Assembly: GCA_965113315.1 (NCBI GenBank) | Contig: OZ220364.1 | Length of the DNA: 64,000 bases | Source of the DNA: Podarcis vaucheri | Lineage: Eukaryota | Strand: one strand, 5' to 3' | Shown: positions 16,801 to 59,800 of the stretch, piece after piece | How the letters are laid out: every line of letters starts with the position of its first letter | Position numbering within the stretch: the first letter of the stretch is position 1 | Translations under genes and position numbers: made by a program | Notes under the pieces: model-generated | Told to the model about the DNA's origin: nothing | What the model saw: only the letters and a program-made list of their open reading frames with translations | The model's database searches: none

Positions 16801-17183
16801 TTAACGAAAAAGAACAGTGTTTAAAAATCATAGAGAGAAAAAAGATTTTTAAAAGAGATAAGAAGAGAAATTTTAAAAAAGGAAATAATGACTTTTGATT
16901 TTCCACTTGGCACTTTTGTATACACATCTTCAAATTAATTTAAGTTGGCTCAATTGCCTCTTGCCCTGCTTCACAAGACTCATTTGCTATCTCGAACCAG
17001 GTGACTGGTGAGGTGTAAGGGGACAAGCCCTCTTTGTTCAAAAAGGGCCTTCTCGGTAGTGGCACCTGCCCTGTGGAACACCCTCCCATCAGATGTCAAA
17101 GAAATAAACAAGTATCTGACTTTTAAAAGACATCTGAAGTCAGCCCTGTTTTGGGAAGTTTTTAATGTTTGATGGTTTATCGC

Positions 17184-17216
<33 letters not shown>

Positions 17217-26200: not shown

Positions 26201-29200
26201 CTCAGCCCTTCTCCATGGTTTGTCTCTTGCAGGAGCTGATAGCCCTGGGGTTCAGTAACTTCGTGGGCAGTTTTTTCCAATGTTACAGCATCAGCTGCTC
26301 CATGTCCCGCTCCCTTGTGCAGGAGAGCACTGGAGGCAACAGCCAGGTACGTCCCCAATGTAAGATGTCATCTTTTTTTCTGGTAGGAGCAGGTAGCAGT
26401 TTCTAAATCTAGCTGTTGAGCATTGGAGCCAGGGTTGCAGAGAGAGCTCACTTGGAGCTAATGGAACTGCATCCTGGGCTAAGTTAGGTAACTAGGATTT
26501 GCCTTCCCTCTCTTGCATCAAATGCCTAGTTCAAATCTCCCTCTCCCTGCCATTATTTTCACAGAACATAGAGCACAAATGATGTGCTGAGGATGGTTTG
26601 GCTATCCATTCACAGGGAACCGTATCAAGTCTGAGGGCAAGGCATGAGCCTAGGGGTGCCTCCAGACCATGGGTAGGCAAACTAAGGCCCGGGGGCCAGA
26701 TGTGGCCCAATTGCCTTCTAAATCCAGCCCGCGCATGGTCAGCGTGTTTTTACATGAGCGGAATGTGTCCTTTTCTTTAAAATGTATCTCTGGGTTATTT
26801 GTGGGGCCTGCCTGGTGTTTTTACAGGAGCTGAATGTGTGCTTTTATTTAAAATGCATCTCTGGGTTATTTGTGGGGCATAGGAATTCGTTCATATTGTC
26901 CGGCCCCCTATAAGGTCTGAGGGACAGTGAACTGGCCCCCTGCTGAAAAAGTTTGCTGACCGCTGCAGAAGAGTGTCAAGTGTTTTTCAGGAGGGATTTG
27001 AGCACCTTCTGGGAAACATGGCTTTGCACAACTAAAGTGGGTTAAAGTGCTCTCTCACTCCAGTGCAACAAAGCCCCCCCTTTAAAAAAAAGAAGAAAAA
27101 AAGGAAGCAGTCTTTTTCCAAATTGGAAAAGCAAGGGGGAAATGCACTGGATGAATGATTCATGGGAACGGGGTATAAACACCCTGCAAGCAAATCAGGA
27201 TGAATGCTCAGTAAAGACCAGGAATAGTCTAACCTCCATGTCAGCCTTGTGCAATCCAATCAGGAGGAATGTTGGATAAGTCTGGAGGAGCTCTAGGCTT
27301 TTCACAAGGAAAATGAATGGAATGTCGTCAGTAGTTTAAGAAAGGGAGGGTGAATGTGTGTGCATCGGGGGGGGGGGGTTGCCCTTTTCTACTCCAACCA
27401 GGCTTGCACTTATTCATCTCTATGCTCTCCTCTGCAGGTGGCTTCCCTGGTCTCCTGTCTCATCCTCCTAGTGACCATCTTGAAGATTGGGGAACTTTTT
27501 GAACAGCTGCCCAAGGTACTTTAAACAAACTTGGTGCTCTCAGTCTTTGGCTACAATCCTAAACACGCGGGAGTAAGCTCAACAGGACTTACTTCTGTGT
27601 AAACATGCACAGGAGTATACTGTTTGTTTCATTTTACCTGTTGGTGGGATTAACTATTGGGGCAGGGGGTGTCTTTATATGTGCCAGTGCCATATGTATC
27701 TAGCTTGTGAAAGACAGCAGCAGCAGAGAGGCACATAGAATATTGAAGAAAACTATCATTTAAGCACAAGACTAAACAGCCGCATCTCCCTTTGAAGACT
27801 TCACAACTATGCGATAAAAGTCTCTTTAAACTGAGACTTTTCTGTTGTTTTCTGTGTTGTGGGTGTTATGATACTGCCGATTCTCTATAATATCTTTGCA
27901 ATTTCCTTGTTCCTCAGGCCATTTTAGCTTCCATCATTATTGTCAACCTGAAGGGCATGTTCAAGCAGTTTAGAGATATCCGTATGCTTTGGAGATCCAA
28001 CGTTACTGACCTGGTAAGGAAGAAAAGAGGAGCTCTATAGAAATAAGAGGAAGCCTGGTTCAACTGCTAGCCTGCTGTGGCCCTGCTTTGACGCTGCTGC
28101 GCCACACAATCAGCACAATCGCACAGTGCAGTTCTTGCTAAACTCCAGAACAGCAAACCAGATGTCTCTCTAGCAGACACCTGGAAAAATATGTGAAACC
28201 AAACTGGTCCTCCCTAACTAAAATGCACAGGGTTGCATGTTTGAATGCTTCCCCTAAGGAGTGGGGGTTTGGGGAATCTCTGCACATAGAACCCTTGAGT
28301 CATGAAGGAATCTCAGTGCTAGAATTTTTATCCCCAACATTCTAGTTTTCTATGTGCCAGAATGTTGCTGTTGTTGTTGTTTTACCCAAAAATGAAAAGT
28401 AGGGGCAGCATTCAAATATGTATTTCCTGCAGATCTCGCTAGCAAATAATTTGTATTTATTGAAGTATTTTCCAGACCCCTGCTGTGTGTCTGGCTTCGT
28501 TACCCCAGTGACTGTTTTGCCTGCTGCTCCTGGCACATGGCAGTGGCATAAATGTTGGCAACTGCAGCCGAGAGGCTTGGGCTTGTTGCAAACTTTGCAG
28601 TGAAGTGCAGAAAGCTCAGCTTACATGATCAAAGCGACAGCCTTCACGAAGGCTACCATGCGTCCCACGGTGCATCCAGGATCCACGCTTCCTTGCACCT
28701 TCTGGTACATGCAGGAACAACGCATCCCTGGATGATTCCATGCATGCTCTTTAAAGTTGCTGGCTTAAAGCTATTGTTTTAGCTCTGCTTTAGTTTTTAG
28801 GCTATCTTTCATATTTTGTTTGCATTGCACTATTTTATGCTGCCTTGTGTACTTCAGTAAAGAGACAGGGGTATAAATATAACAATAATGCCTAGGAGCA
28901 TCCAGGGGCTCCACAGTAGCCTGCACAATGTATATTAGCCACCCTCCGCCACCCACTGGATAACTCTGCAGTTGCCATGGAGGCAATAGACCTCTGTGTC
29001 ATTGCCTTGAAGCTTCTGAACAGTCCCAATGGCTTGGTGCAACAGGGAACAGTTGTAGATCAGGACAGACAGTTGCATAATTCAGCAAGTTTTCCTTAAG
29101 TCTTCTGTTGATATTTGGGGGCAATTGTACTTACACTTTCTCTATTGTTTCTCTCTCTCCCCCTCCCATGCTCTGCAGCTGATCTGGGTTGTAACCTTTA

Positions 29201-32200
29201 TAGCTACTATTGTGTTGAATCTTGACATGGGGCTGGGGGTTGCTGTGGCCTTTTCACTTCTCACCGTAATCTTCCGGACCCAGATGTGAGTATTCCTTGG
29301 TCTGTGGAGGAGAGGGGGAGGTGGGCTTGGGAACGGCCCTTTGCCAGGTAGCAGGAAAATGGTAGCATTCTGGTACCACCTCCTGGTGCCACTCAGTTAA
29401 AATGTCAGCGTTGAGCCAGGAACCCAGAAGATCAAGCCAGGAATCAGAGCCAAAGCAAAGAGCAAGCCATAGCCAGGAAAGATGTATCATTACCAGTAGT
29501 TTTAGCCTGAACAGAAGCACTTCGTAGCCCTTACTCTTAAGGACAGCCAGTGGCCAGACATTTGGGAAGAAATAAATATTAAAGGAACTGTGTTAGGTCT
29601 TTGGCATTCATCAATGCAGCAGTCTGTAATGATGAAAGTGTGGTGATGTCCGACCAATGTGTTCACCTCCCAGGAGATACTTCTCGCCAGAACTGACATA
29701 ATCTCAGACTGGTGTATTGAACAAGTTCCAACTTTCACCCATATGAATTTGGCAACTTCTCCATCAACATAAAACTCCAGGTGTCATGAAGTTGTTGCTA
29801 AGTAGACTGAGCAGAGTCTTTGCTAATCCCTCTTTTTCCATCTTCTCTAAGGCCCCATTATTCCATTTTAGGACAAGTGCCCACAACTGATGTTTACAGA
29901 GATGTAGCTGAATATCAAAAGGTAAAGTACATTTGGAAAATGACTTGGGGAGATGACTATGGAGGGGCTATGTAGAAAATGGCGTGTGTGCTTTGAAAAA
30001 CAAAGCACTGTGCTTCCTCTTGGACCAAAGCAAACATGAGCGGAAAGAGTTCAAGAAGGTGTGCATGTCTAATGGAGGGCTGGGTTGAGACAATCCCAAG
30101 ATGCAGAAGGGTTTATCCTTCTCAAGCCCTTTTGCCCACATCTTACTAGGAGCAACCTCTGTTCAACCACAAAGCATTTCACCAAGTGCTAGCTCAAATC
30201 CAGATTTCTAGCCACAGAAATTACATGCCCTATACTAAAGCCTAGTCTTTGTTTGTTCATTTGTTTATCAAATACTTATCCCACCTGTTAGGAGGTCCTA
30301 CACATGAGTAGGCATCCAGCAGAGACACATGCCCGACTGGCATGTTCTCTCCCTCCTGGTCGGTCGTTCTGGAGCTTCAAAAGCTTTCTCCAGCCCTAAC
30401 ATCACAGCAATTGATGCCTTGCAGGCATCAGCACACTTCAGGATCAGCAGAGTCTTGGCAGTCAGCGTAACAGACTCAGGAGCACAGCATTTTGGCTAAA
30501 CTACTTTATTTACATATAATACACTTGGAGCATTCTAACTCAGCTCCTTTCTCATCATCATCAAACAGCAAAGAGAAAGAGACAAAGGAACAAACGTCCT
30601 ACTTCACGGAAACACAGTAATACAAACATCCTGTCTCCATCACTTCTCACTATGTGGAATAAAAACACACACCGTCATGTGAAAAAAACAATCCCATGAC
30701 TGCAACACGGGGCAAGAATCCTAACAAGAAGCACAGGAGATCAACCATGGACTTACTTTCTGCTTTATTTTCACAACACCACTTTGAGGGATATTAGATT
30801 GTAATTTGTCCACAGCGAGCTGGTGAGCTTTGTGCCTAGTGGGGATCTGAACAAAAGTCTCCTTGGGTTCAAGCTACTGTGACACTGTACTAACTCCTTG
30901 TTTTGTTCTGTTTCTAGGCTGAGGAGATCCCAGGCATGAAGATTTTCCGCTCCTCCGCTACGATCTATTTTGCTAATGCTGACTTGTATGCAGAAGCCCT
31001 AAAGAAGAAGGTGAGGAGGGTTCAGAAGATGTCCCTCATATTTCAGGGGGGGAGGGTTTCCATGCTGACCAATGCATTAAATAAAATGACTTTGGACTTT
31101 ATTCCGCTTAGAGGGAAAAGACAAACAAATGCAACAGAGTCTCTATTCCCACAGTACTCTTAGTCCTCTCTGCTCACATTTGATATAGAAAGGAAAGGGA
31201 CTGAGGTGTAGACTGAAGCCCTGTTTAGTCATTCTTCAGTCCCACCATAATCAGCATGCAAAGGCCATCAGGATGGGTGGGTGGGTGGGTGGGTGTGAAT
31301 GGGTCTTATTGAAGGGTTGCTGCTGGGTTGGGACAGCTGTAAGATTTTTGTTTTGGAGAACAGGGTGTGGTTTTTTTTTCATTTTGTTTTGTTGCTGTTT
31401 GAATTATGTTCTTCTATTCCTGTTGTTGGGCCTTTGTATTAACTATTTGCGGGTTCTTTAATCTTAATATATATTCACTAGCATGAGCCATTTTGTTTAG
31501 CCTATTAATATTTGTGTGACAGTTTAATTTTTTTTAGACATTGTAGTTGCTCGAGCAACATTTCAGGATAATTCACTGCTTTATTATGTACGCTTTTCCA
31601 ATATCGTGATCTGCTTTGAGCATCGTTTGCCATGGAAAAGGGGCATACAATTAAACTCACAGTGATAGTGCCTAAAAGATATTAGCATAGTTAGCAGACA
31701 AACTATCCTGGGGAGGGAATTCCACAAGTGAGATGCCTGAGCCAAATAGACCCCCTCTGACAATAGCTGATGGAGGGCACTGGAGGAAGATCTTAGTGTT
31801 TGGGGATGTTGATACAGGAGAAAAGAAGTTCTCTCAGACATCTAAATCCTAAACCAGGATGGGCTTTAAAAGTAAGCACCAGTGCTTTGAATTGTGCTTG
31901 GAAACAGATTGGAAGCCAGTGGAGTCCTCTAAGAACTGGCAAGACATGTTTCCCAAAGTTTTGGTCCCAACCAGAGTGTAAATAGCTGTAGTCTGCTTCT
32001 CTCTATCTTGGAAAGGGCACTACAGTTGCACTGGTTTTAGCAATATTCTTCATGCCACTGTCAATGCTTGGTCCTCTAACAATAGAGCAGGATGAATTGG
32101 CAGCACCTAAATTACTCACCTGATCCATTACCTGAGGCCACTTGGGCCTCATTTGCAGAAGCCAAACAGAATTCATAGTATGAAAGAGGCTCATAGACCA

Positions 32201-35200
32201 TGGCTATATAACACGTACAAGGAGACATAGGAAGCAAGCAAACAGGCTAGAGTGATCTATACCTTGCTAAAACCAATAGCTGCTGGTACATAAATATATG
32301 TCTCTTTTTCAGTGTGGCTTTGATGTGGACCGTCTTGTTGAAAAGAAGAAAAAAGCCCTAAAGAAGAAGCAGAAGAAAGACAAGAAGGAAGCCAAGAAGG
32401 CAAAGGTGGATCATTTTCTTCTAAATTACTAATTAGTGTGTTTCCATGAAGTTTATTGTGTGTGTAGTTAATTCATAAATAATTTGAGGCAAGAAGGAAA
32501 GGCGGCTAAATCATTGTTTTCATGTGGGGACCTGTTCACACATGACACTAAGCGCACTTTTGCTAAAAGGACCTTTGGTGTTTTGTAAATACTTGCAGAT
32601 TTTGTTAATACGGTCCTAAGCCAGCCATGTTTTAACTTGGAGATAGTTACCTGTAGCCCTTCTGATGCTGTTGGACTACAACTCCCATCATTCCCAACCA
32701 CTGTCCATGCTGGTTGGAGCTGATGGGGATTGGAGTCCTCCAGCATCTGGAGGTTTACAGGATAGTTACCCCATTTTTAACCTGAAGTGAAATCCATTTA
32801 GGTGGGGAATCTTTTTCAGCACAAGGGCCAAATTCCATTTTGTCAACCTTACAGTGGCCACAAACTAGAGGTCAGCAGGGCCAGAGGCAAAAGTGGCCAG
32901 ATCAATGAACAGTAGAGTGGGTCTAGTTTCTACACATGCTCACACACCTTGCTCTATCGTGTATGTCATAGTTCAAGGACATCTTCCAGCCACAAGGGCA
33001 CAGGGTTTGAAGCTTTTTATAGAAGATGTAACTTCTCTGTTCCTTCTGCCTTCTGTTCTTTGTCCCAGAAGTAATTTATGGAGGTTCTCAAAATGTCACA
33101 TGGAGACACAATTGCTTTGAGTTTACTCGGACTTCTGTTCTGCTCTTGTTTTGGTAACAGAAAATGGCTTCTCAGATCAAAACAGTGTGTGACTCTGGGA
33201 GCAACAACCTGGCATTTGTGAATATAGATATGGAGCCAAGGGCACAGGTATTTATCAATCTGGGCACGAAAGAAAGTTGTGGTCAACATTTCCGGGAGCA
33301 GGCATTTAACATGATCATATGAGTAAAACCCATATGATGATGATGATGTTTGGTACTGTGGGGAACAATCTGGATTTGTTGTCTCAGGCACCAAAATGTG
33401 TTGGTCTGTCTCTGAGTAGACTTGCCGCAGACCTTTCATACTGTTGATAAAGTGGCTCTCCACCAGAGCTGCTAGAAAAGCTGTGGCACAAAGCCATTTC
33501 CGACCTTGGGAGGAGGTGGTGTTGTGGACCTCATGCCCCCAACACGCGTACGGAGGCTGGCTCCCAGCCCCCGCGCGATCTGGGGAATCCTCGGCCGCAT
33601 CATCCCCTGGACAGCCAATTGGCTGGCCCAGGGGGTGTGCCTTGCCTCATTTAAGGCAAGTACAGCTGAGAATCTCCCTCTTTGGCCGCTCAGCTCCTTC
33701 GGTTTCCTGCCCGCCCTTCAAGGTTTCCCTTCTGACCTTGCTATGAACCTCAGTTGGTCGCCATTAAGGGGCCTGGTAGGAATTTATTCCACTTGGCAAA
33801 TTGGCACCAGCCATTTGGTTTTTTGCCTACCTCGTAGCAAACCGTCACAACTTTCTCAGTTTTGGCGGTTAGGCATTGGTATGGGTATTGTTATGGAGAT
33901 GTATGGGGGGGGGAGCGCCATCACCTCCCCCAGATATTGAAGGGTATTCCGGTAAAGGATTCCGGGGGGGCATGGCCCCATCCAAAGCCTATGGAGGTCA
34001 GAGCCTAAGGCACGCCCTTAAGCAGTGACCCCAGGTGAGTTCCTAGTTGATGTGCATCAGCAGGGCTCACCCTGCTGGTGTTAACCCTTCCCGGTCTTCA
34101 TGCAAACAGGCTGAAGATTAGCAAAGTCCACCCCTGCTCCTTTTCCAAAAGGCCTGTGCCTGCAGCTGCAGCTCTCTGTACATCTTCTGAAAAGAGATGG
34201 GTGAATCTGCCAGTTTTGGTTTCTCTTAGTTCCTCATTTTCCCAATCTTAACTTCAATTCTCCACATTTCCACATCAGTTTGTGATTATTTTTAAAATCC
34301 TTATGAAAATTCAGCAGCATTTCAGTTTGAACTTCTAATATACGCATTTTGTATGCAATTTTGCCATATATGCAGATTTTGTGCAAAGCATATTTTCCCT
34401 AATTTTTATATTTCCCTTAATATGAATCACGTTTGTCATATTAATATAAGTGCGCTAGCATATGCATTTTTAGGCACGCTTTACTGTGGTATGTGCATTC
34501 TTGTGCATGTTGCTTGACTAAAGAACTGCACTGCGAAATTTGCAGAAGTGTGAATTTCCAAGGGTGGTTGTGTTTTGTTCCATGTAGTGTTTTGGAATGT
34601 GCAAATTAAATGTGAAATGAATTGAATTTCTCACCCACCCTTAGTGTTGCTGAGACACATTATGAGCAGAACCAACCTGAGAAAACCCAATGGCCAGAAC
34701 ACTGTTTCATGTTGGGGGGAAATACTGTGATTTTTCTTTCCTCACAGGAGCAGGGAGATGACACAGCAGCCACTGCTGCTAATGGAAGTGTGACTGACTT
34801 GGCCCCCCAAAACCAGAGCCAACCACAACCTTCTGGCAAACCCACTTTGCATTCCCTGGGACTGAAGAAGCCTCCTCTTCACTCGCTCATCCTGGACCTC
34901 ACCCCTGTCAACTTTGTGGACACCGTCTGCATAAAGACCTTTAAAAACGTAAGGAGAGGACAACAACCAGGAGAGGGACACCTGTCATGAGAGAGTTGTT
35001 CTGTGTGCAGCCAAATCTAAAAGGCAAATCTGCCTCATGAGGAAGACTCCTGGAAAGGGAGGGGTTTCAGATGGCTTGAGCTGCTTGACTTCCAGCTAGA
35101 TGACTGAGAGCCAAACTCCATGTGAGGTTAAATGCAGCTTTGCATCTAAACCTGTAGGTTTCTTAAAATGCAGACGGCACCAGCTGAAGGTGCTGTGAAG

Positions 35201-42774: not shown

Positions 42775-45700
42775 CATGGATCACTGCCTTGCCGTGGCGA
42801 AGGGGCTTGAATAACTCAGAGAAGCTATGAACTATGCCGAGCAGGGCACCCAAGATGAACAGGTCATAGTGGAGAGTTTTGACCAAACGTGATCCACCTG
42901 GAGCAGGAACCGGCAAGCCACTCCAGTATCCCTGCCAAGAAAACTCCATGGACAAAGACAACAGGCATATAAAAGTTATGACGCTGGAAGATGAGCCCCT
43001 CAGGTCGGAAGGTGTCCAACATGCTACTGGGGAAGAGCGGAGGACAAGTACAAGTAGATCCAGAGCTGATGAAGCGGCTGGGCCAAAGCCGAAAGGACGC
43101 TCAGTTGTGGATATGCATGGAAGCGAAAGGAAAGTCCAATGCTGTAAAGAAAAATATTGCATAGGAACCTGGAATGTAAGAACCATGAACCTAGGTAAGT
43201 TGGATGTGGTCAAAAATGAGATGGCAAGAATAAATATTGACATCCTGGGCATCAGTGAGCTAAAATGGACGGGAATGGGCGAATTCAGTTCGGATTACTA
43301 TCATATCTACTACTGTGGGCAAGAAACCCGTAAAAGAAATGGAGTGGCCCTCATAGTCAACAAAAGAGTGGCGAAAGCTGTACTGGGATGCAGTCTCAAA
43401 AATGATAGAATGATCTCGATACGAATCCAAGGCAGACCTTTTAACATCACAGTAATCCAAGTTTATGCACCAACTACTGGTGCTGAAGAAACTGAAATTG
43501 ACCAATTCTATGAAGACTTACAAGACCTTATAGAAGTGACACCAAAGAAGGATGTTCTGCTCATTATAGGGGATTGGAATGCTAAAGTAGGGAATCAAGA
43601 GATAAAAGGAACAACTGGCAAGTTTGGCCTTGGAGATCAAAATGAAGCAGGGCAAAGGCTAATAGAGTTCTGTCAAGAGAACAAGCTGGTCATCACAAAC
43701 ACGCTTTTCCAACAACACAAGAGACGGCTCTACACATGGACATCCCCAGATGGGCAACATCGAAATCAGATTGATTATATTCTCTGCAGCCAAAGATGGA
43801 GAAGCTCTATACAGTCAGCAAAAACAAGACCTGGAGCTGACTGTGGCTCAGATCATCAGCTTCTTATAGCAAAATTCAAGCTTAAACTGAAGAAAGTAGG
43901 AAAAACCACTGGACAGGTAAGATACAATCTAAACCAAATCCCTTATGAATACACAGTGGAAGTGAGGAACAGGTTTAAGGATTTAGATTTGCTGGACAGA
44001 GTGCCTGAAGAACTATGGGTGGAGGCTCGCAACATTATACAGGAGGCAGCAACTAAAACCATCCCAATGAAAAAGAAATGCAAGAAAGCAAAGTGGCTGT
44101 CCAACGAGGCCTTACAAATAGCGGGGGAGAGAAGGCAAGCAAAATGCGAGGGAGATAGTGAAAGATACAGGAAATTGAATGCAGATTTCCAAAGAATAGC
44201 AAGGAGAGACAAGAAGGCCTTCTTAAACGAGCAAAGAAATAGAGGAAAGCAACAGAATGGGAAGAACCAGAGATCTGTTCAAGAAAATCAGAAATATGAA
44301 AGGAACATTTCGTACAAAGATTACCATAATAAAGGACAAAAGTGGTAAAGACCTAACTGAAGCAGAAGACATCAAGAAGAGGTGGCAAGAATACACAGAG
44401 GAATTATACCAGGTAGTGTGGTTGCTGACCTTGAGCCAGACATCCTGGAGAGTGAAGTCAAATGGGCCTTAGAAAGCACTGCAAATAACAAGGCCAGTGG
44501 AAGTGATGGTATTCCAGCTGAACTGTTTAAAATTTTAAAAGATGATGCTGTTAAGGTGCTACACTCAATATGCCAGCAAGTTTGGAAAACTCAGCAGTGG
44601 CCAGAGGATTGGAGAAGATCAGTCTACATCCCAATCCCAAAGAAAGGCAGTGCCAAAGAATGCTCCAACTACCGCACAATTTCACTCATTTCACATGCTA
44701 GCAAGGTTATGCTTAAAATTCTACAAGGAAGGCTCAAGCAGTATGTGGACCGAGAACTCCCAGAAGTGCAAGCTGGATTTAGAAGAGGCAGAGGAACCAG
44801 AGACCAAATTGCAAACATGCGCTGGATTATGGAGAAAGCTAGAGAGTTCCAGAAAGACATCTACTTCTGCTTCATTGACTATGCAAAAGCCTTTGACTGT
44901 GTTGACCACAGCAAACTATGGCAAGCTCTTAAAGAAATGGGAGTGCCTGATCACCTCATCTGTCTCCTGAGAAATCTCTATGTGGGGCAAGAAGCTACAG
45001 TTAGAACTGGATATGGAACAACTGATTGGTTCAAAATTGGGAAAGGAGTACGGCAAGGCTGTATATTGTCTCCCTGCTTATTTAACTTATATGCAGAATT
45101 CATCATGCAAAAGGCTGGGCTGGGTGAATCCCAAGCCGGAATTAAGATTGCCGGAAGAAATATCAACAACCTCAGATATGCAGATGACACAACCTTGATG
45201 GCAGAAAGTGAAGAGGAATTAAAGAACCTTTTAATGAGGGTGAAAGAGGAGAGCGCAAAATATGGTCTGAAGCTCAACATCAAAAAAACGAAGATCATGG
45301 CCACTGGGCCCATCACCTCCTGGCAAATAGAAGGGGAAGAAATGGAGGCAGTGAGAGATTTTACTTTCTTGGGCTCCATGATCAGTGCAGATGGTGACAG
45401 CAGTCACGAAATTAAAAGATGCCTGCTCCTTGGGAGAAAGGCGATGGCAAACCTAGACAACATCTTAAAAAGCAGAGACATCACCTTGCCAACAAAGGTC
45501 CGTATAGTAAAAGCCATGGTTTTCCCAGTAGTGATGTATGGAAGTGAGAGCTGGACCATAAAGAAGGCTGATCGCCGAAGAATTGATGCTTTTGAATTAT
45601 GGTGCTGGAGGAGACTCTTGAGAGTCCCATGGACTGCAAGGAGATCAAACCTCTCCATTCTGAAGGAAATCAGCCCTGAGCGCTCACTGGAAGGACAGAT

Positions 45701-45958
45701 CGTGAAGCTGAGGCTCCAATACTTTGGCCACCTCATGAGAAGAGAAGACTCCCTGGAAAAGACCCTGATGTTGGGAAAGATGGAGGGCACAAGGAGAAGG
45801 GGACGACAGAGAATGAGATGGTTGGATGGTGTTCTTGAAGCTACCAGCATGAGTTTGATCAAACTGCGGGAGGCAGTGGAGGACAGGAGTGCCTGGCGTG
45901 CTCTGGTCCATGGGGTCACGAAGAGTCGGACACGACTAAACGACTAAACAACAACAAC
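42775..45958 (+). mobile_element. BovB (RTE clade) LINE, full length, frameshifted
   Basis: APE endonuclease (GTWNVRT, GISELKW, GDWNAKVG, NQIDY, SDH) at 42879-44348 and RT (QGCILSP, YADD) at 44382-45947; 3' end ..GAGTCGGACACGACTAAACGACTAAA(CAA)n; TSD AATGCAGAAAT at 42764-42774 and 45959-45969; frame breaks near 44232 and 44410. Confidence 0.96.
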
Positions 45959-48759: not shown

Positions 48760-48980
48760 CTAGTATGGTATGGTGGTTAGAGTGTTGGACAAGGATTTGA
48801 GGCCAGAGTTCAAATCCTCACTTGGCCATGAAGCTCTCTGGCCGACCTTGGGCCAGTCACTGCTACTCAGCCTAACCTACCTCACAAGGTTGTTGTGGGG
48901 ATTAAATGAGGAAGAGGAGAATCACATATGCCACCTTCAGCTCCTTGGAGAAAAAGGTAAGCTATAAATGCTATAAATAA
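48760..48980 (+). mobile_element. tRNA-derived CORE-type SINE
   Basis: TGGTATGGTGGTTAGAG A box, GTTCAAATCC B box, CCTACCTCACAAGGTTGTTGTG core. Confidence 0.7.
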
Positions 48981-49919
48981 GAAAAATGTTTAAAATGGAC
49001 AAAAACAGATTTCTTGTCTCCAAATAACCCTGCTCACATAGTAAAAAGAGGTTTCCAGACTTCTGTAACAATAAGCAGCCCAAAGAGGACCCAAAGTGCT
49101 CAGCAACCACAGAATGTGGCCTGGCTGTTGTGGGAGGGAACGGAAAATCAGGAGAGGGGCCAGATGGAATGGAATGGAATACCCTGGTAGAGGGCATAAA
49201 ACACTGAGAGGGCAGCACATATGTTGGGATGGACACTTTTTTTTGAACAGGCCTTGGGCAAGGTGGCAGTGAGATCAGGGCTGTGTGGTTAAACCGGCAG
49301 AAGAGCCGTATTGCCCCAACCTCACCATTGCCCTGCCCCCAGCCCCATCCAGGAAAGCAGGAGCAGCACAAGTGTCAGGATGGTGGCTTCATAGCTCCAT
49401 CTCACTAAACACAGCCACCACCAAATCCTGAACATCAATGCTCCACGCTGAAACATCATGTTGCGTGTCAAAACCCCTCCCCCAGAAAGAAAGACACAGG
49501 ACACAATGTTTAAGTTTAATGGGCATGAAATGGCCACAACTTTATTGATTAGAGAATTGAAGGTATTGGCCCTAGGCATTGGCTCCTATCCGCTACCCGG
49601 CATGATGTCCGGGAAGGGTTAACACTAACCGTGGGAGGCCCCCGTTGGAGTACGCCAACTAGGATCCCACGGGTGTCACCGCTTGGGGCGTGCCGGGGGC
49701 CCTTACCTAGGTAGGTTTCGGACAAGACAACGCCCCTCGGAGTCCTGTACCGGACTACCCCATTTCCTGGGGGAAGGTGATGGCGTTCCTTCCCCCCCAT
49801 CCATTTGCATAACAATTGTACCCCAGCCAATGCCTAACCGCCATTCGAGCAAAGCTCGCCGCCAATACCTTCAAACCTGTAACCAACTCCTATGCCCTGC
49901 TATGGAAACCCCTGAACCC

Positions 49920-50452
49920 AGGACCTAATCCCCGTTCTGATATCACCCAACCATAGGTCGTTCCCTGCATCTGACAGATGCACGCCATCCCTTCTGTAGA
50001 GGGCCTCGTTGCTGAACTGGATGCCCGGGTGTCTGATGACAAACCCGCCCCAGAGCTGCCACTCTACGTTCCACCGCTCGTTCCGAAACCTTTCTCGCCT
50101 TGTTGACTCCTACTGGGCTCACGCCATCTCTCCATGTCCTTCTCGCAAACAACGAGGACCAAATTATTGTGATAAGTGGGTTTGCTATTACCACCTCAGA
50201 TCGATCGCCTTGCGATAAGCGAGATCGTTTTCCCCAATTGAATCACTAGGGCGTCAGGCGGACCCTCGGCCGCAGCCCTGGCCATCACAGCCGGTTTGCT
50301 TTCACTCCAGCGCATCCCTCTACGCGCTATTCAAACCAGCTCCACCCTGGGATGTAAACTCAGGTTGCCGCCCAGACCGCTTCTCAAGGCATGAAACTTG
50401 GCCCAGTGCACGATGCTGTGGCCCACCAACCAAATGCGCAATCTCGTGGGTT
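49920..50452 (-). pseudogene. Decayed SGNH/GDSL hydrolase ORF4 of the Ngaro-like element
   Basis: Manual translation: RIWLVGHSIVHWA (block I), RGMRW (II), PDALVIQLG/NDL (III), IIWSSL..R, RDGVHLSDAGN (V, DxxH). Interrupted by TGA at 50331-50333, TAA at 50188-50190 and frameshifts near 50232 and 50050. Confidence 0.85.
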
Positions 50453-50501
50453 CTGAAAGGCAAATAGAAAAGTGGGCGGAGGTCAGGGGTGTAGCACGCA
50501 G

Positions 50502-51392
50502 TCACAAGTTGCTTCTCACATAGGCCTTGTACGCGTTAGATTTCCACCTCCCCAAGTCTTTAATCCTCTCCGTGGGGAGCCCCATATGTACTGCAGTGGT
50601 GGCTGCGCCAATACGGAAGGAGTGAGCAGCAAATTCTGATGCCGGGAAACCACAAGCCGACAATGCCGACCGCATAACCCTAGTGAACTGGTGTCTAGTA
50701 AGGCGGGATCCGTCCGCATGTATCAGAAGCGGACCGGGTCCGCTAGGCCTTAGGTAAAGAAAACGCCTCGTGTCCCGAACCGGACAAGGGCCCTTCCCGA
50801 GAGCTGCCGGCAGCCGGAGCAGGGCCCCCTTGCCCTGCTGATCTGTCTTTGAGCTCCGCACCCGCACTATGAGATCGGTTCTAGAAAGGGTCAGGTCGCT
50901 CATCAAGATTCCCCTCTGAGACTGGGTGGCATCTCCTTCACATACTACCTCGCCTACACGTAGGGCGCCGAAGAAAGCTATGGAAAACGCTGTTGAGAAT
51001 AAACGCGCTTCGTGCTTTGACCAGCAAATTTCACGAAGAACTTTGTGAATCTTAAACAGAATTTCATAAGTTACGGGCCGCCTCCTGTCCGCACATGGGG
51101 GTTGCTGTCTGCGCCATCCCTCCAGAGTTTTGCGCACAATGAAGGCTGCGCAGGGGTCTTTCTCGAAAAATGTTTTACAAAAATACGAGATCCCTGCTGA
51201 GTGAATATTGAGTGTCTTAGGAGCCCGGCCTAACTCCCTCATGTGTGCCAAGTAGTGGAGGACCTCCCTGGTTGAGGGAGTGGTGTGACTACTAGAGCCA
51301 GGGATGCGTGCGCGAAATCTTAAAAAATCGACCCAAGCCTTCTTATACGATCTCATTGTGGACGGGGCCACTGCACCGAATACTCCCTTCAT
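50502..51392 (-). CDS. Tyrosine recombinase ORF3 (296 aa)
   Basis: N-terminal SAM-like region (STMRSYKKAW); catalytic set FFGALR(R), SKTDQ(K), HSFR(H,R), GRW(W), AYKAY(Y). Confidence 0.92.
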   Translation of the reverse strand: MKGVFGAVAPSTMRSYKKAWVDFLRFRARIPGSSSHTTPSTREVLHYLAHMRELGRAPKTLNIHSAGISYFCKTFFEKDPCAAFIVRKTLEGWRRQQPPCADRRRPVTYEILFKIHKVLREICWSKHEARLFSTAFSIAFFGALRVGEVVCEGDATQSQRGILMSDLTLSRTDLIVRVRSSKTDQQGKGALLRLPAALGKGPCPVRDTRRFLYLRPSGPGPLLIHADGSRLTRHQFTRVMRSALSACGFPASEFAAHSFRIGAATTAVHMGLPTERIKDLGRWKSNAYKAYVRSNL

Positions 51393-52552
51393 TATGTCTC
51401 GCTCCCAATCCTCCAGAGATGCTCCGGGAAAGGCATCGATGATTGGTCCGCTTCTGGCGCTAACGAGCGGAAGCGCTCCATCTGAAAACGAGATAGAGCG
51501 TCCGCGATGTCATTATTAATGCCAGGCACGAATTTGGCTGAAAAGTAAATATTCTGTTCTAAACACAGAAGGACAAAAGCGCGCAATAGATTACCCACTC
51601 TGGTGGACCGTGCAGATTGCCTAGCAAGGACCGCTACCACTGCTTGATTGTCGGTGTTAAAACAAACCCTGCGATTACGAAATAGACCCGCCCACAAATG
51701 CACCGCTACGACAATCGGGCTGAAAGATTCAAAGGCTGCACATGCAACGGAGCAGCCCATGGGCATAGCCTTGTCAATGAAATACGCGCCGTCAAATTTA
51801 AAGCCCAGCCATTTAAAGTCGTCTGGGTGAACTGGGAGAAGACGGAAGGCGGACTCGATGTCGCATTTTGCTAGGAACGCCCCCTGACCGAATCGACGGA
51901 TCATTTTTACAGCCCGATCGAAGGAGGCGTATTTCACTGTACAAAGCTCCTGAGGAATCGCATCATTAACAGAACCCCCTCTCGGGTAAGAGAGGTTGTG
52001 AATCATGCGGAATTCCCCCGATGCCTTCTTTGGCACGATGCCCAGCGGGGAAAGGTGAAGCCCCTGAAAAGGCGGTTCAAGAAAGGGACCTGCAACCCTG
52101 CCTGCCCTGATTTCCTTCTCTATTTTCTTTCTGACTATGTCGGGCCGTTCCCTAACAGATTTTTGGTTATCCGCCTCCCTGGAGTTGGGTGGGGTGGCCA
52201 CCGGGATCCTAAATCCCGTAGAAAACCCCTCCCAGAGGTATTTACCCGCGGTTTTATCTGGGTATTGTTCTAATAGGACTTTGAGGGGCTGCAGGCGAAT
52301 AGGGGAGAATGCCAAACCTAGGTCAGTGTTACTGGCGATTGCCGGGACCTTGACGGGATGCACCGGGGGCACCTCTGGGATTGTTAAGGAAGTACCCCCT
52401 GCCCCCCCGAAAGGGCTGAGGCTTATTTTTGAAGCACGCGGAAGCGGGGTGATTACCCCAGCATTGCTCGCATTCATGTAGATACTTACAAGAGGGGCGA
52501 GAGCACACGCCCCTGTTGAACTCCCAGCATTGTCGACGCTTCTTTGGCTCAA
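51392..52552 (-). pseudogene. RT/RNase H ORF2 with in-frame internal deletion of the YxDD core
   Basis: SPLGIVPKK..FRMIHNLS, KCDIESAFRLLPVHP, MPMGCS followed directly by late RNaseH (PIVVAV..TDNQAVV..PGINNDIADALSR); no YxDD anywhere. Confidence 0.85.
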
Positions 52553-53897
52553 TCTTACCCACTTTTTCTGCCTCCTGACTCTTCTTCTCGATGTAAGGGT
52601 TTACATCCTCGCCCCAGTAGTTAGGATCTGTGAGGTCCCATCGAGTGGTGGGGTGGAGAGAGGCATTCCTCCGGAAGTTCTCGTCGTACGTCAAAGCAGC
52701 GTTTTCACCTGCCAGGGCCCGAGCTCGCCTCACATGAGCCTGGTAAGCTACTAAATCCATGGCGCGGTGGGGGTAAGCTGCGCAAACTACACCCATGAAA
52801 ACCTGGTACCCGTCTAACCAGTTCTCAAATGTGCGCTCCGCCCTGGGCGATCTATATTTCCTTCTACCATAAGAGCGTCTTTTTTCACCTTTTCCTGTTA
52901 TTTTTGTTGGGGGGAGCAGGGTAAACATATCCACGTAATCCCCGTTGAGGATCTTATTCCTCTTCCTATGTGACAAGTGGTTTCCCAGAATGAAGTCTGT
53001 GGGCTGATTGGTAGCAACCTTAACGTCCTCTACCAATGTCCCATCCTTCCAATACAAAACCCCGTTAAAAACCTTTCGGTGGGAATTGGCCCTCCTTTCA
53101 TGAGCCCAAAGGGGGATCCCATGGTTGGACTCCCCAATACCCCAATAGCCATCCATTGGCCCTTCAGAATCAGAATCTGAAGAGGACGTACCTGATTCCT
53201 CCTCCTCGGTGTCCGAATGCCTGCTCCTCTTCTTTTTTGCCGACGTGTGCTTCTTTTTGGACTTCCTCTTACCCCCTTGTGGCACGCCGGGAGTGGCGTC
53301 GGCCAATGGCTGAGATGGCTGATTCTCCCCCAGTTCCCCTTCGGAACCAGAACCCGCGCTGTCCTCAGTGGAACTGCGCGCCTGCTGCTCCTGAAAGGCA
53401 CTTGGTATACCTATAGCTTGAGAGATGGTGTTACTGCCGCTCCCTTTTCTGGGTGCCTTCCCCTTACCTTTGCCCTTTGCTGGGGCCTTGGCTTTACTGG
53501 TAGCTTGTGTTGCTTTTTTAGAGCGGGCGGACTGCGCCCGCGTACCGGGTCGGCCACTAGCTACGGCAACGGGCTGAGCACCGGCTGTCGATGCAGCCGC
53601 CTGGGCACCGGCTGCTGGTGGGACCGATTGTGCCCCAGCCGTCACTGTAGCCGAGGGCCCTGACAGCCCCTGGTTGGAGGGGGGAGTATCAGGTATTACG
53701 TCCTGCGAAGGCTCTAGAGCGGGCAGCGCCGAGGACCCTGGTCTACATTGCCTATAAAGAGTTTCGAACATCCTGAAAAACTGTTGTAAAGATTGAGGAT
53801 CATAAGGTAAGGCTGAAGCCTGCGCGCCCCCATTACTTGTGGAGGGGACCGGCTGGTCGCCGCCAGTGGTGGACTGCTGATTTTCTCCGGAATCCAT
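52329..53897 (-). CDS. Gag-like ORF1 of the Ngaro-like element (522 aa)
   Basis: Low-complexity basic/acidic N-half, YDENFR..RWD motif, C-terminal CCCH+CCHC fingers (CWEFNRGVCSRPSCKYLHECEQCWGNHPASAC). Confidence 0.85.
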   Translation of the reverse strand: MDSGENQQSTTGGDQPVPSTSNGGAQASALPYDPQSLQQFFRMFETLYRQCRPGSSALPALEPSQDVIPDTPPSNQGLSGPSATVTAGAQSVPPAAGAQAAASTAGAQPVAVASGRPGTRAQSARSKKATQATSKAKAPAKGKGKGKAPRKGSGSNTISQAIGIPSAFQEQQARSSTEDSAGSGSEGELGENQPSQPLADATPGVPQGGKRKSKKKHTSAKKKRSRHSDTEEEESGTSSSDSDSEGPMDGYWGIGESNHGIPLWAHERRANSHRKVFNGVLYWKDGTLVEDVKVATNQPTDFILGNHLSHRKRNKILNGDYVDMFTLLPPTKITGKGEKRRSYGRRKYRSPRAERTFENWLDGYQVFMGVVCAAYPHRAMDLVAYQAHVRRARALAGENAALTYDENFRRNASLHPTTRWDLTDPNYWGEDVNPYIEKKSQEAEKVGKIEPKKRRQCWEFNRGVCSRPSCKYLHECEQCWGNHPASACFKNKPQPFRGGRGYFLNNPRGAPGASRQGPGNRQ

Positions 53898-54158: not shown

Positions 54159-54161
<3 letters not shown>

Positions 54162-54395
54162 AGGTTTTGGTGTCTTCGGGTGTCTTCCCGTGTAAGAGTC
54201 GGGGTGTCTGTGCGACGTTTCGACGAGGTCTCACTCGTCATCTTCAGGCTGGTGCTTTCGGCTTCTTGTTACTGGAACAGAGCAGAATCTGGTGTTTGAG
54301 TTCCTATAAATACTGTTGAGGGGTGTGGTGTATAGCCTCCAACGTTCTGGGCAGAGATTTGCAATCTACGAACGTAGATTTGCAATCTACGAAAG
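54159..54395 (-). mobile_element. Penelope-like element fragment nested in (TA)n inside the Ngaro-like leader
   Basis: Contains a PLE-type minimal hammerhead motif; (TA)n/(TATG) runs on both sides. Confidence 0.65.
54212..54249 (-). ncRNA. Minimal type I hammerhead ribozyme motif (Penelope type)
   Basis: Minus strand reads GC-CUGAAGA-U-GACGAG-ugagac-CUCGUC-GAAAC-GUC-GC: conserved core, 6-bp stem II, but only ~2 bp of stem I. Confidence 0.65.
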
Positions 54396-54701
54396 CAAAT
54401 ATATATATATGTATATATGTATATATATATACCTATATATTATCTAATTATTTGTTGTGTATATATATATATGTAGTCAGATTATCGTAGTATATTAACC
54501 CTAAATGTTATAACTTATAAATCCCACTTATAAATGTAAATCACAGAAATAACTATGTGTTCTACTTGCCTGAGCTACTCCTCCTACCAGTCAATCTCAA
54601 TATATGAGACTAAAAGTGCAGATATTAACTTTGCAGTAAAACAGTAAAATGAAATATATTCCACCTTCTTCTAGCAATCTGATGTTTAACTTTTTAACAC
54701 C

Positions 54702-54746
54702 TGGTCTCCCATCCAATTTGAGACCACGTTGGACCCTGCTTAGCTT
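54702..54746 (-). promoter_or_regulatory. 5S rRNA-derived internal control region (A box and C box), not a full 5S gene
   Basis: AAGCTAAGCAGGGTC-N15-TTGGATGGGAGACC: both blocks and the 15-nt spacing match vertebrate 5S rRNA; spacer and flanks are diverged. Confidence 0.8.
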
Positions 54747-54884
54747 TGCAAATGTGCTAGCAGTTTTATTGCTGCACCACCAGGGGGACTCTCCAATCTT
54801 GAGGGAAACAGGAGCTTAACTTCCAAGAGCTAACAAAAGCTTAGCTAGTATTTAAGCCGCTAAAGCCAATATACTATCTAACAC

Positions 54885-55170
54885 TACTAGGCAAATAAGC
54901 CAACCTGATAGGTACACAACCACAGAATAAAATAACTAGGAATTAAATCACAGGCTGCTGCCAAATTACAGGAATAAAATAACTAGAATTAAGTAATTAA
55001 AGGAACAAAATAACTAGGCAAATAAGCAACCTGATGAGCACACAACCACAGGCTGCTGCTGAATTAAAGGAATAAATTAACTAGGAATTAAGTAATATAA
55101 GGAACAAAATAACTTGGCAAATAAGCTACCTGATAAGCACACCATTACGGGCTGCTGCCAAATTAAAGGG
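54885..55170. repeat. Imperfect tandem repeat, ~3 units of ~110-130 bp
   Basis: GGCAAATAAGC..ACCTGAT..CACA..GGCTGCTGC..AATTA recurring at ~54888, ~55016, ~55125. Confidence 0.8.
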
Positions 55171-56169
55171 CTAAAGGAGCGGGAGAAGGACGCACGGAGC
55201 GACAGCAGGCGAGGGGAGGAATCGGCTCCAAAGAGCAAGGAGGTTTAAACGAACCCCACAGAGAAGGGAGACCTGGCAAGCGTGTGTTACCCTTTCCAAG
55301 CGCAGGATCGAGATTCCAGCTCCAGCAAAGACAGAGGTCCCGCTAGTGATTTCAGCTCCGGCTGAAGGTGAGGGCAGCTGAACGCAGTTGAAAAAAAACA
55401 AATCCCACGACGCTTGAACAGGCTTGAGGAAGACCGGGTAAGAGATCAAAACCTCTCAGCTGGTCGGGAGTGAAGAGGGCGGACCCTGGGCGTGCCCGGC
55501 TTAAAATACCTTAAGCCACGCCTCCCCCCGGCCCGCCGATAGGCGGGCGGGGTCGCGAGCACGCCCAGGGATTCCCCCAACTCTCGCGGGGGCCAAGGTT
55601 AGCCCCCGCGCTTGGGGAGGAGGGGCTAGACCGCAACACCCTCTCCTCCCTATAGTCGGAAATGGCTTTGCAGGTCCCACTGCCTTGAAGAAACTTTTGT
55701 GCAACAGGTGGATGGGGGGGCATTTTAATAATCGTTTTAATATTTTCCCGTTTAGATTAAAATGAGGATAGATGACTTTTTAGAAGTTTGATTCTATAAA
55801 ACGATCGCTTTCCCCGTTTTTAGCTGCTTTTATTTTAGCAGTAAGCCGCTTTGAGTCCCTGTCAGGGGAAAAAGCAGAGACGAAATTAGGCTTTCTTTCA
55901 CCCTGTTCAAAGACCCAATTTGGAACCCCCTCGTTATAAATTCTCTCTCCCGGGACGGCGGAAGATTTTACCAATGGCCTGTCCATTTAATGAGGTGGGT
56001 TCTTTTTTTCTTCAGCCTCCCTTTCTCTGACTTTTTATGTTTAAGAGAAAGAATTAAATCTTAGGAAACACACAAGCAGGCGGTCAGATTCTGGGCTAAC
56101 TTTGAAAGAAACTGCATGGGCTTCTGCCCTCATAGAGGTAGAAGATTCGCCAAAAGCACTGCTAGTTCC

Positions 56170-56830: not shown

Positions 56831-59800
56831 GCAGCCCCCCCCACCAGCCTTCACGCCCCCCCCCCCGCTGCTGCTGCTGCTGTTGCTGGGGCGGTGCTCA
56901 TTTTGACAGCATCGCCACTTACCCTCCCATATCCCCACATTGGCCGTGTCCTTTGGAGCAAAAATAAAACGTGCCTCTGAGCACCTGCAGAGTGTTTTTC
57001 CTGCGCCCCGAGCAGCCTTTCTAAGACTTCATATGAGGGGGCAGGGTTTCTTTCTGAAGTCAAGCGGTCCAGTTCATTTTAGGCGTGTAGTACTGACCAC
57101 ATCTTGCTGGGTAGCGTTGTGGGAACACAGTCCAAAAAAAGAGGAAGAAACATGTTTTCCGAAACATTTGTGGCGGTAGTCCCAGAGCTCTTAAATTCAT
57201 TGTTGAGCTAAAGTGAGATTGGGCAGAAGTTGCCAACTTGCCACCGTTATGCGGATATAAAAATCTCTCCTTTTTTGTTTTTGTGTTGCAAAATAAGCTT
57301 CTGATGTGCGCACGTCAGATTTGATTCATGGGATAATGGAATTAGGAGTTCAGTTCTTTTAATGAAATTTGGGGTTGCTTTAATTGTTAGAGACGTTTTT
57401 CAAATGATTACATTGAATTTAAATAATGAGCTGTTTCTGTCATCAATCTATGTAGAAAGATAAGCATTATTTTGACTTAATATTTGGGGCAGGTTTAATA
57501 CCTTTAAGTTTAATGTTCTGCTACAGGTAATTTATATGCCTTGTGGTGTTCATTTGTGTATTTCCCCAAGTGCATTTGCAAAGATTTAATGTAGGAATTC
57601 ACAAGTTTATTTGGGGAAACCTCATTTTTCACTTTAAAAGATGTAGTTTTCAGTACTGGAAGGAAGATTTCATAAGGCATTCTTTTTAGTTAATAGTACA
57701 ACGATTGTAAAGCTTTTTTCTGCAAATCCTCCTGAACAGGTAATTTTGGAGTTGATGTATTTGGCACCCCTCTGTGGATGGGTGGCATTGGGGTCTACGA
57801 AATGCCTGCTTCCGTTTGCAATTTCAGTGGCTAGGGAGGCATGACATAGAATTGCTCATCATTACACTTTGACGATGCACATGCTAAGCTGGTGGGCAGT
57901 AATCTGAGGCAGTCCTATTTATGAAAGATGTAGGTTATAGTGAGATTTATACATTAGAACCAAAATGGTCAAAGGCCTGGAAACGATGCCTTATGAGGAA
58001 CGGCTAAGGGAGCTGGGCATGTTTAGCCTGGAGAAGAGGAGGTTAAGGGGTGATATGATAGCCATGTTCAAATATATAAAAGGATGTCACATAGAGGAGG
58101 GAGAAAGGTTGTTTTCTGCTGCTCCAGAGAAGCGGACACGGAGCAATGGATCCAAACTACAAGAAAGAAGATTCCACCTAAACATTAGGAAGAACTTCCT
58201 GACAGTAAGAGCTGTTCGCCAGTGGAATTTGCTGCCAAGGAGTGTGGTGGAGTCTCCTACTTTGGAGGTCTTTAAGCAGAGGCTTGACAACCATATGTCA
58301 GGAGTGCTCTGATGGTGTTTCCTGCTTGGCAGGGGGTTGGACTCGATGGCCCTTGTGGTCTCTTCCAACTCTATGATTCTATGATTCTATGAAATGGGAC
58401 TGGATGGAGAATTTGTCATTTTCAGTTTTGTAATTTAGATACCACTTACCTGCTACTGCCAAATGGCAATATCTTTAATAGCAGCACCTTTTATAGTGAC
58501 TATTTATAGACCATTGACTTTGAGTGCTTTGGGCTCTCCTTTATTGCCGGGGCAAATAACTGGGTTTTTGCAGAAAGCTAAATTTTAAATAGTTGTTTAT
58601 AAATGTTTATTGCAATGTTGTAGATGGGATGTTTCAGATCTTAGAGACAAAATACAATAAAAGTGTGCTACATTCAGCTCAGTCAATGGAAAGTTGTAAA
58701 GCCATCTCTCTGTAGTGCTTCTTTATATTTAAAATTGAGGTTGATTGAACAAAAATTGATTTTCTGCTGTGTTGGACCCTTATAGAAAGGAATTGGTTAG
58801 GTCAGTTAGATACCGGTGATGTAATACAGTGGACGCTCGGGTTGTGAATGTGAAAACGTGTAACCTGAAGCGTCTGTAACTCGAGGTGTGACTGTATTGA
58901 AAACTCCATTCAGGTATATGATGTATGCATATACCATGGTGTCCTCTTTCTGATCAGAAGTTATTTTTTGTATTAATGCTGGGATATTTTTTTTGGTGGT
59001 GGTCACATTTCATCAGGTGGTTTCTGTAACAACTTAAAATTGCATACAAGTAATTTTTCACATGTATCTGATGTCTTTATATGACTCTTCGTGTATATAT
59101 CTTGTTATATGAATTGTGCTTTTGACAATAAACTTTTCTTTAGCCAGCTTTATGGAGTTTGACAAGAAGAGGAAGCACTGCATCTTATGCTCAGGTGCTG
59201 CATAATATTCCTGAGACACATGTCACCACTCTAGACAATGGCTTACATGTGGCTTCTGAACAATCTGGCCAGCCTACTTGTACGGTAAGCATAATATGGG
59301 GTTCTGAAAATTATTAGAGTCTCTGTTGTTTCAGTTGGGCCTATCTTCAGTTAAAGTTTGCTATTTTTTATTTAAGTGTATAACCTGCCATCTTTCTGAG
59401 TTTCAAGTTAAAAAGTACTATTTTTGAAAAACAGAAAATAAAATTCTAAAAGATAAATATCAAACTAAATGAGGAGCAAACACTAAATAATTCCTCTCAC
59501 TGATTCAAAAAAATGTTCTGACTTCAGTGACTCTCCAGGAAAAGGAATTCACAGCTATGAAGTAGCAACTGACAGTGCATCTTTGGATTTTGCTTGCTTG
59601 TTCTTTGCTTGTTGCTGATCAATGGCAGTGATTCTCAGATTTTATTCTGAAGAACCCTAAGGTTCCTGTGGAAGCTTATCTGGGGCTTCTCCGTGAGAAG
59701 GCCAGAATGACAGGCAAATGTTCCTGAAACATGCCCAGCGCAACTGATCTACTCTTCAGCGTATAGCCGTTGAGTATTTTCTTGGGTTCAGTTTCAGTTC

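Follow-up and report, generated by a model that had tools for sequence, protein, structure and literature searches.

The window, by which we mean the whole 64,000-nucleotide stretch of Podarcis vaucheri DNA analyzed here, is animal DNA that contains repeats of CR1-, L1- and Sauria-like type, and it includes LINE endonuclease and reverse transcriptase (RT) frames split by one stop region (42870-45947, plus strand; Exo_endo_phos, RVT_1). A coding tyrosine recombinase (YR) retrotransposon of 6.2 kb occupies the minus strand from ~55667 to ~49460, ~850 bp upstream of a first exon that is CpG-rich (plus strand; ATG near 56516). Its gag, RT/RNase H and YR frames follow one another in this order, with all Pfam scores below the curated cut-offs: a gag-like frame with a CCCH finger (52329-53897, ATG at 53897; zf-CCCH_10, E = 0.006), an RT/RNase H frame with an internal deletion (51392-52600; RVT_1 positions 2-132 of 205, E = 0.0008; RVT_3, E = 0.014) and a tyrosine recombinase frame (50502-51509; PF00589, E = 0.00025). 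The Atlas neighbours of the YR frame lay at 0.97, with PF00589 on 29-33% of the members, and its protein found one distant locus in viral contigs (29% identity). Downstream of it, a broken SGNH-hydrolase-like frame (49903-50460, minus strand) was recognized from motifs by eye; the first 99 residues of the SGNH-like frames gave no Pfam match and another of these frames no PDB match. The RT/RNase H frame (~51710) continues in frame across the large deletion, and gag and YR are open. Judging from these frames, the copy would be non-autonomous, yet it may make two proteins.

The element begins with a 5' repeat, A1 (55430-55667, minus strand), which aligns to 33489-33720, shows multi-copy depth and sets the element edge at 55667/55668. 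The 3' repeat B1 lies with the probable element end at 49460-49886 (minus strand), and its part 49600-49843 corresponds to 33863-34103 at 75%. A second, solo A-B piece of a related element (33489-34103, plus strand) aligns to 55670-55430 and then to 49843-49600, and was probably left by recombination between A repeats. A1 and B1 are thus present here and adjacent as A-B in the second copy, and A2-B2 is missing; PAT-like elements share this layout. A 26-nt inverted repeat (85%) brackets most of repeat B (49545-49570 and 49861-49886), and a short inverted match, TGTTGCG/CGCAACA, is found near both element ends (55638 and 49460).

Between A1 and gag, the leader contains a low-copy segment adjoining A1 (55164-55478, minus strand; contig records 6, 15 and 20 among those listed) and a tandem array with a unit of ~99 bp (54886-55175, minus strand). 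Organism F has a different number of these units (go-back joint from 55169 to 54931). Nearer to gag, a hammerhead-like piece (54160-54400, minus strand; minimal core ~54237-54213) lies between two TA arrays. We take this piece to be a probable Penelope-type insertion, as it resembles a Penelope pseudo-LTR. Rfam reported no hammerhead in the whole window at gathering thresholds or in 54200-55700 at E ≤ 10; a hammerhead-bearing Penelope element with AT-rich target sites has been described in an anole (available text of PMC11167929).

The feature under study lies in this leader in sense orientation, as the initial annotation had placed it, between A1 (~55667) and the gag ATG at 53897. On the minus strand, box A AAGCTAAGCAGGGTC (54746-54732) is followed by a 15-nt spacer and box C TTGGATGGGAGACC (54716-54703), and the 12- and 13-nt cores of boxes A and C are the sole exact matches in the whole window. 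With a chance expectation of ~3e-13 for both boxes at a fixed spacing in the window, coincidence is excluded as the source of the motif. For registration we used metagenome locus L013, a full 5S rRNA gene (Rfam RF00001). The window is identical to it at 15/15 positions of the box A region (+49 to +63; 54732-54746, ungapped), at 5/6 positions of the intermediate element (54723-54728), which we take to be +67 to +72, and at 14/14 positions of +79 to +92 in the box C region (+79 to +97; 54698-54716), with 15/18 over +80 to +97. All three promoter elements are therefore present in 5S order and spacing, and the implied 5S +1 is 54794. Outside them identity to 5S is at chance level (+1 to +48, 11/48; +64 to +66, 0/3; +73 to +78, 1/6; +98 to +119, 7/22). 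The match of the two boxes and their spacing to 5S rRNA, claimed before on the letters alone, was thus confirmed; that everything else differs holds for the flanks and linkers and not for the intermediate element, the core of which is retained. SINEBase assigns a SINE to the 5S-derived type at 60% identity or more to 5S over 60 nt (as given in the accessible part of PMC3531059), and here +38 to +97 agree at 41 of 60 positions (hand count, ungapped), 37 of them within +49 to +97.

Forty reference loci were retrieved with the two boxes as a pattern, so their identity in the boxes is by construction; independent support comes from Rfam, which identified 16 of 16 scanned loci as 5S rRNA. The boxes are 15 nt apart in 22 of the 40 loci and 16 nt apart in 18. 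These 18 metagenome loci (L001, L002, L009 and 15 others) also have a divergent 5' third, six of them scanned at 76-79 bits in Rfam, and seem to form a separate variant type of 5S gene. Rfam made no 5S call at our locus, either in the whole window at gathering thresholds or in 54200-55700 and 54630-54810 at E ≤ 10, and the box pattern had no match in viral contigs. The first T4 run on the minus strand after the boxes, a possible Pol III stop, is indeed at 54646-54649 (+146 to +149, i.e. 149 nt from the implied +1), ~750 nt before gag.

We compared the stretch 54440-55800 at 80% likeness with three contig runs from related organisms, X3 (organism A), X7 (organism D) and X10 (organism F), which together with the RNA run X23 are 4 of the 24 listed runs; 1,752 (X3), 1,891 (X7) and 1,884 (X10) contigs were placed. 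In all three contig runs a depth peak spans 54692-54784. The summed depth over 54716-54761 was 40,150 (X3), 94,621 (X7) and 53,892 (X10), against 0-382 over 54440-54669 and 54808-55451; relative to one low-copy contig of the same run the peak was 2,419-fold (X3), 3,571-fold (X7) and 3,306-fold (X10), values that describe depth and not copy number. The 5' edge is sharp, with depth falling from 15,000-35,000 to 22-106 in the adjacent bin. This drop delimits a head of ~40 nt (54747-54788, minus strand; 5' edge at 54779-54788) that is not 5S-like, the region before box A matching 5S at 11/48 positions. Past 54779, 54780 and 54784 the loose ends of the matches listed are heterogeneous and AT-rich (agreement 0.34-0.35, median 255 letters), and on the opposite, left side those of the matches listed share one common consensus (agreement 0.52-0.79) that is neither 5S nor window sequence. 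Interspersion, at least 100 copies and flanks of their own were found in all three contig runs.

A 14-mer of this downstream consensus agrees at 12/14 positions with three copies of a CR1-type tail in the window, just before the conserved tail stem (reference tail 58319-58392, plus strand); 4 of 100 shuffles reach four hits, the three matched tails belong to one CR1 subfamily and 30 letters of the continuation are visible. An 18-mer version had no match in the window with three mismatches allowed. The likeness is no more than suggestive of a CR1-like LINE tail as the shared 3' sequence of the family. The three CR1-type 3' ends (57958-58392, 2177-2611 and 20120-20293) are mutually 99-100% identical; they would represent a recently active subfamily and a candidate partner of the SINE, or a relative of that partner. 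From the dispersed repeat, its sharp 5' edge, the 5S promoter and the probable LINE tail, we identify the motif as head plus internal promoter of a dispersed, high-copy, 5S-derived SINE of the SINE3 type, which looks short and shows no evident central domain.

Genuine 5S genes do not explain the depth peak, which includes the non-5S head and has a different spacer. A tRNA or Sauria origin of the head found no support (1527 and 425 of 2000 shuffles scored equally well), and comparison of the head with the Sauria-like heads in the window gave no significant match. The family-type pattern had no match in genome contigs and a single match without box A in viral contigs, which we took as chance. 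Our literature search, which lay outside Repbase, Dfam and most subscription papers and supplements, returned no description of this SINE family, which may already be catalogued; the accessible portions of PMC10702118, PMC7983390, PMC13295347 and PMC9498476 treat tRNA-derived squamate SINEs or general repeat content and contain no such family. The initial annotation had seen in the motif a promoter captured by the retrotransposon, and had itself stated that likeness to a 5S-derived SINE that is dispersed and has flanks of its own would speak for a secondary insertion. Such a SINE is what the contigs contain, and we abandoned that account of the origin.

RNA was examined in X23, raw single-cell reads of organism D, of which 12% of one run was used and 209 reads were placed. 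Nearly all read depth falls within 54670-54807. In two groups of loose ends, one past 54777 (29 reads) and one past 54784 (46 reads), the template-switch oligo appears 10 and 7 letters on, respectively (oligo identity from the accessible text of 10.1101/2022.04.20.488964), which puts the RNA 5' ends, in minus-strand sense, at the equivalents of 54787 and 54791, 3-7 nt downstream of the implied +1 at 54794. The read groups behind these ends may be few molecules, and the X23 table of molecule ends contained no place where many molecules start or stop. The SINE family is thus transcribed, with its RNA starting at the head, and the position of the 5' ends fits Pol III initiation by the internal promoter. 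Since upstream of the head the letters are not those of the window, since at 54722 the family letter and not that of the window copy stands in 32 of 34 reads, and since the flanks are without reads, we assign these RNA reads to other loci. There were no reads on the flanks of the embedded copy (54440-54669 and 54808-55221), which in 12% of one run says little against a short Pol III RNA. The earlier proposal that this copy gives a ~150-nt RNA thus found no support. At a further loose end, before 54735, 13 RNA reads have a spacer nearer to 5S than that of the main family; by their letters they represent one more SINE subfamily that is transcribed.

The embedded copy is a variant of the family. 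Between 54702 and 54731 it differs from the main loose-end consensus of the matches listed at 7 of 30 positions, five of which are consecutive transitions right after box A, and its box C is identical to 5S at the one position where the family consensus departs. It probably derives from an older or minor subfamily. Likeness to the SINE ends at 54692-54697 (minus strand; listed records 10-12 end at 54692-54696), and the CR1-like tail is missing. The spacer region contains a 7-bp inverted repeat (54702-54726, minus strand), the arms of which, TGGTCTC (54702-54708) and GAGACCA (54720-54726), lie where they had been described. This hairpin is specific to the variant, and the fold of the region is no stronger than that of shuffled sequences (z -0.87 and -1.36). 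Among the matches listed, 96-98% of the contig depth at 54722 carries the family letter and not that of the window, so the perfect hairpin is not a family trait, and we rejected it as a conserved structure at the DNA level; with the family letters set in by hand, the arms can still pair with three G-U pairs.

The motif lies outside the terminal repeats, ~640 nt inward of A1, and the A and B alignments do not contain it; the solo A-B piece has no motif, but it contains no leader. Among the matches listed, X7 record 17 (54629-54727) carries the window-type variant with two differences and one gap in 98 positions, joined to 54440-54559, and X7 record 18 (54751-54983), X3 record 13 and X10 record 4 carry the head or edge together with the same upstream flank and the array at 96.5-98%. 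X10 record 3 is ambiguous, with 12 differences in 105 positions and unaligned ends. At the locus itself, 55668 is the exact start of flank contigs in X7 and X10, with 559 and 532 unlike letters beyond. If these represent an empty allele, the unlike letters would end at 48901 and 48928, both within a window repeat at which contigs are expected to break. Organisms D and F therefore contain the cassette, yet this locus is apparently empty in both, an empty site that we infer from these contigs; the YR insertion appears to be lineage-specific, beside a promoter and absent at this site in organisms D and F.

Among the matches listed, no single record links A1 or gag to the motif; on the gag side the comparison stretch ended at 54440. 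Three contigs adjoining A1 depart from the window sequence at 55164-55167 for 614, 906 and 241 letters, and the chain from A1 to the motif is pieced together for that reason. This suggests that the window copy lost a segment near 55164-55167 or that the cassette is joined differently elsewhere. The depth of the cassette is far below that of the A repeat (X7: ~36-140 outside the array versus 1,300-2,600, the latter inflated by solo A-B pieces). Since the same variant occurs in the same flanks elsewhere and the locus is apparently empty in two organisms, the tail-less variant probably travels within a low-copy Ngaro-like lineage. The motif had been called an integral part of the retrotransposon, and a fixed position in other copies and relatives had been proposed as the check. 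It lies inside the element and is probably carried by it, as a SINE insertion with co-option unproven; the same variant in the same flanks was found in X7, X3 and X10, with the span to A1 and gag unbridged.

We consider it likely that a SINE3-type head became nested in the leader of a Ngaro-like YR element and that, its tail lost, it has been replicated as a passenger of a low-copy lineage ever since. A 5S-type internal promoter works with TFIIIA, TFIIIC, TFIIIB and Pol III. In the SINE family, TFIIIA would bind box C, the intermediate element and box A, TFIIIC and TFIIIB would follow, and Pol III, the presumed enzyme, would start ~42-46 nt upstream of box A. The SINE RNA would then be reverse-transcribed by a CR1 LINE via the CR1-like 3' tail, and the rest of the SINE sequence would drift, as only the boxes and their spacing would be needed. 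One copy, probably of an older or minor subfamily, would have entered the AT-rich leader of a Ngaro-like ancestor in sense orientation, would next have lost its tail and would thereafter have been replicated with the low-copy YR lineage, presumably with no function in it. Conservation of the boxes alone points to past selection, most simply in the source genes of the SINE; the YR element need not have been its site. The retention of only the boxes, attributed before to promoter capture, was thus most likely shaped during the life of the SINE, and the same pattern is seen in SINE3, Ajax and Cassandra. Of the captured Pol III type-1 promoter proposed initially, the remnant of a 5S type-1 promoter stands; its donor is a SINE, and its use by the element is unproven.

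Co-option is the alternative that touches this reading most closely. Here the SINE-derived promoter would be useful to the YR lineage, through a 149-nt RNA or through TFIIIA/TFIIIC docking that serves as a leader insulator or silencing shield. The seven differences in 30 positions, five in a row, beside a 5S-identical box C are also expected under selection in the YR element: the boxes remained 5S while the five consecutive transitions after box A part the copy from the family. The LINE tail is lost exactly behind the promoter, the variant is retained at ~98% in organism D, a T4 run stands at +146 to +149, and the available text of PMC10886601 offers a precedent proposed for Cassandra and Ajax. 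However, the embedded promoter cannot drive genomic RNA, because it lies outside the terminal repeats and the T4 stop precedes gag by ~750 nt. The adjoining leader DNA is about equally conserved among the matches listed (96.5-98%), the flanks are without RNA reads in X23, the cassette depth in X7 falls far short of that of the A repeat, and an older SINE subfamily accounts for the pattern without a function in the YR element. We therefore regard co-option as improbable.

About as doubtful is the idea that 54440-55170 is not mobile at all, being genomic DNA joined to the element by a local rearrangement, or that the contigs of the other organisms are one orthologous locus. The unbridged stretch 55164-55169, in window order, among the matches listed in the three contig runs would agree with this, as would the X3 depth near single copy (16-23) and the rearrangements elsewhere in this copy (the RT deletion, the missing A2-B2, the TA arrays and the hammerhead-like insert). 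On the other hand, on its far side the X3 contig beside A1 also carries 50 nt of the array (joint 55056-55164), depth is 46-113 versus a flank of 16 in X10 and 103 versus 26.5 in X7, and organisms D and F carry the cassette though the window locus looks empty in both. A direct capture of a 5S gene fragment or 5S pseudogene, without a SINE stage, would account for a box C that equals 5S in this copy where the family consensus is off at one position. This origin is highly improbable, since the ~40 nt upstream of box A resemble 5S at chance level and yet lie under the high-copy peak, and so are a shared non-5S head.

Under the nested-passenger reading, the YR element shows an ordinary nesting of one repeat in another. 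The SINE family would be of use beyond this locus: an abundant lizard SINE with only the 5S boxes and an apparent CR1 tail provides thousands of natural variants for probing what a 5S-type promoter needs. Should a Ngaro-like lizard lineage have domesticated the SINE3 head, trimmed to its promoter, as a Pol III unit or a TFIIIA/TFIIIC docking site, which we think has only a slight chance of being true, Cassandra and Ajax would have in it their first counterpart among YR retrotransposons, with the donor SINE still abundant and transcribed in the same genomes. The literature searched, outside which lay Repbase, Dfam and most subscription papers, yielded no report of a YR element with a 5S promoter.

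The host shares with Ngaro-like YR elements the order gag, RT/RNase H, YR, and may also resemble them in a putative SGNH frame after YR and in repeats A and B, which would fit a split-repeat layout; it differs from them in the missing A2-B2, the deleted RT and a long leader with nested repeats. A-B split direct repeats are described for such elements, e.g. Xenopus DIRS-53_XT, in the accessible text of 10.1101/2021.08.05.455354. As for the SINE, 5S-derived families are already known, including 5S-Sauria in Anolis and CR1-partnered SINE3. 5S-Sauria reportedly has a Sauria/Bov-B-type body and tail. It is likewise a lizard SINE with a 5S promoter, from Anolis carolinensis (part of PMC10946416); unlike it, the present family has a downstream 14-mer that matched CR1 tails and not the Sauria-like copies of the window. 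With SINE3-type SINEs, such as zebrafish SINE3/AmnSINE1 with CR1 partner (sections of PMC3747384) and HaSE3 (sections of PMC3272025), the family has in common dispersal and boxes A and C and an intermediate element conserved above their surroundings, and its probable CR1-like tail would be a further likeness, whereas its likeness to 5S is limited to +49 to +97, its head of ~40 nt is not 5S-like and no central domain is evident.

Conserved boxes with variable stretches of fixed length before the intermediate element and box C are reported for Cassandra (in the part of 10.1101/2023.07.14.548913 available), and the same box-only pattern for Ajax and a lepidopteran SINE3 (PMC10886601) and for HaSE3 (PMC3272025), as far as these texts are accessible. 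Our locus shares with Cassandra and Ajax a promoter-only 5S remnant with variable stretches of fixed length at these two places. Those non-coding elements carry the promoter within the LTR, from where the entire unit can be transcribed, whereas here it lies outside the terminal repeat, in the internal leader of a 6.2-kb coding YR element, and a T4 stop is reached after 149 nt; the host is not a short element with LTR, PBS and PPT. For Cassandra and Ajax (TRIMp3), the accessible texts of PMC10886601 and 10.1101/2023.07.14.548913 propose an origin by insertion of a SINE3 into a retrotransposon. The locus described here puts this proposed first step on view: a SINE3 that landed in a retrotransposon and was probably carried on, with donor and carrier both at hand.
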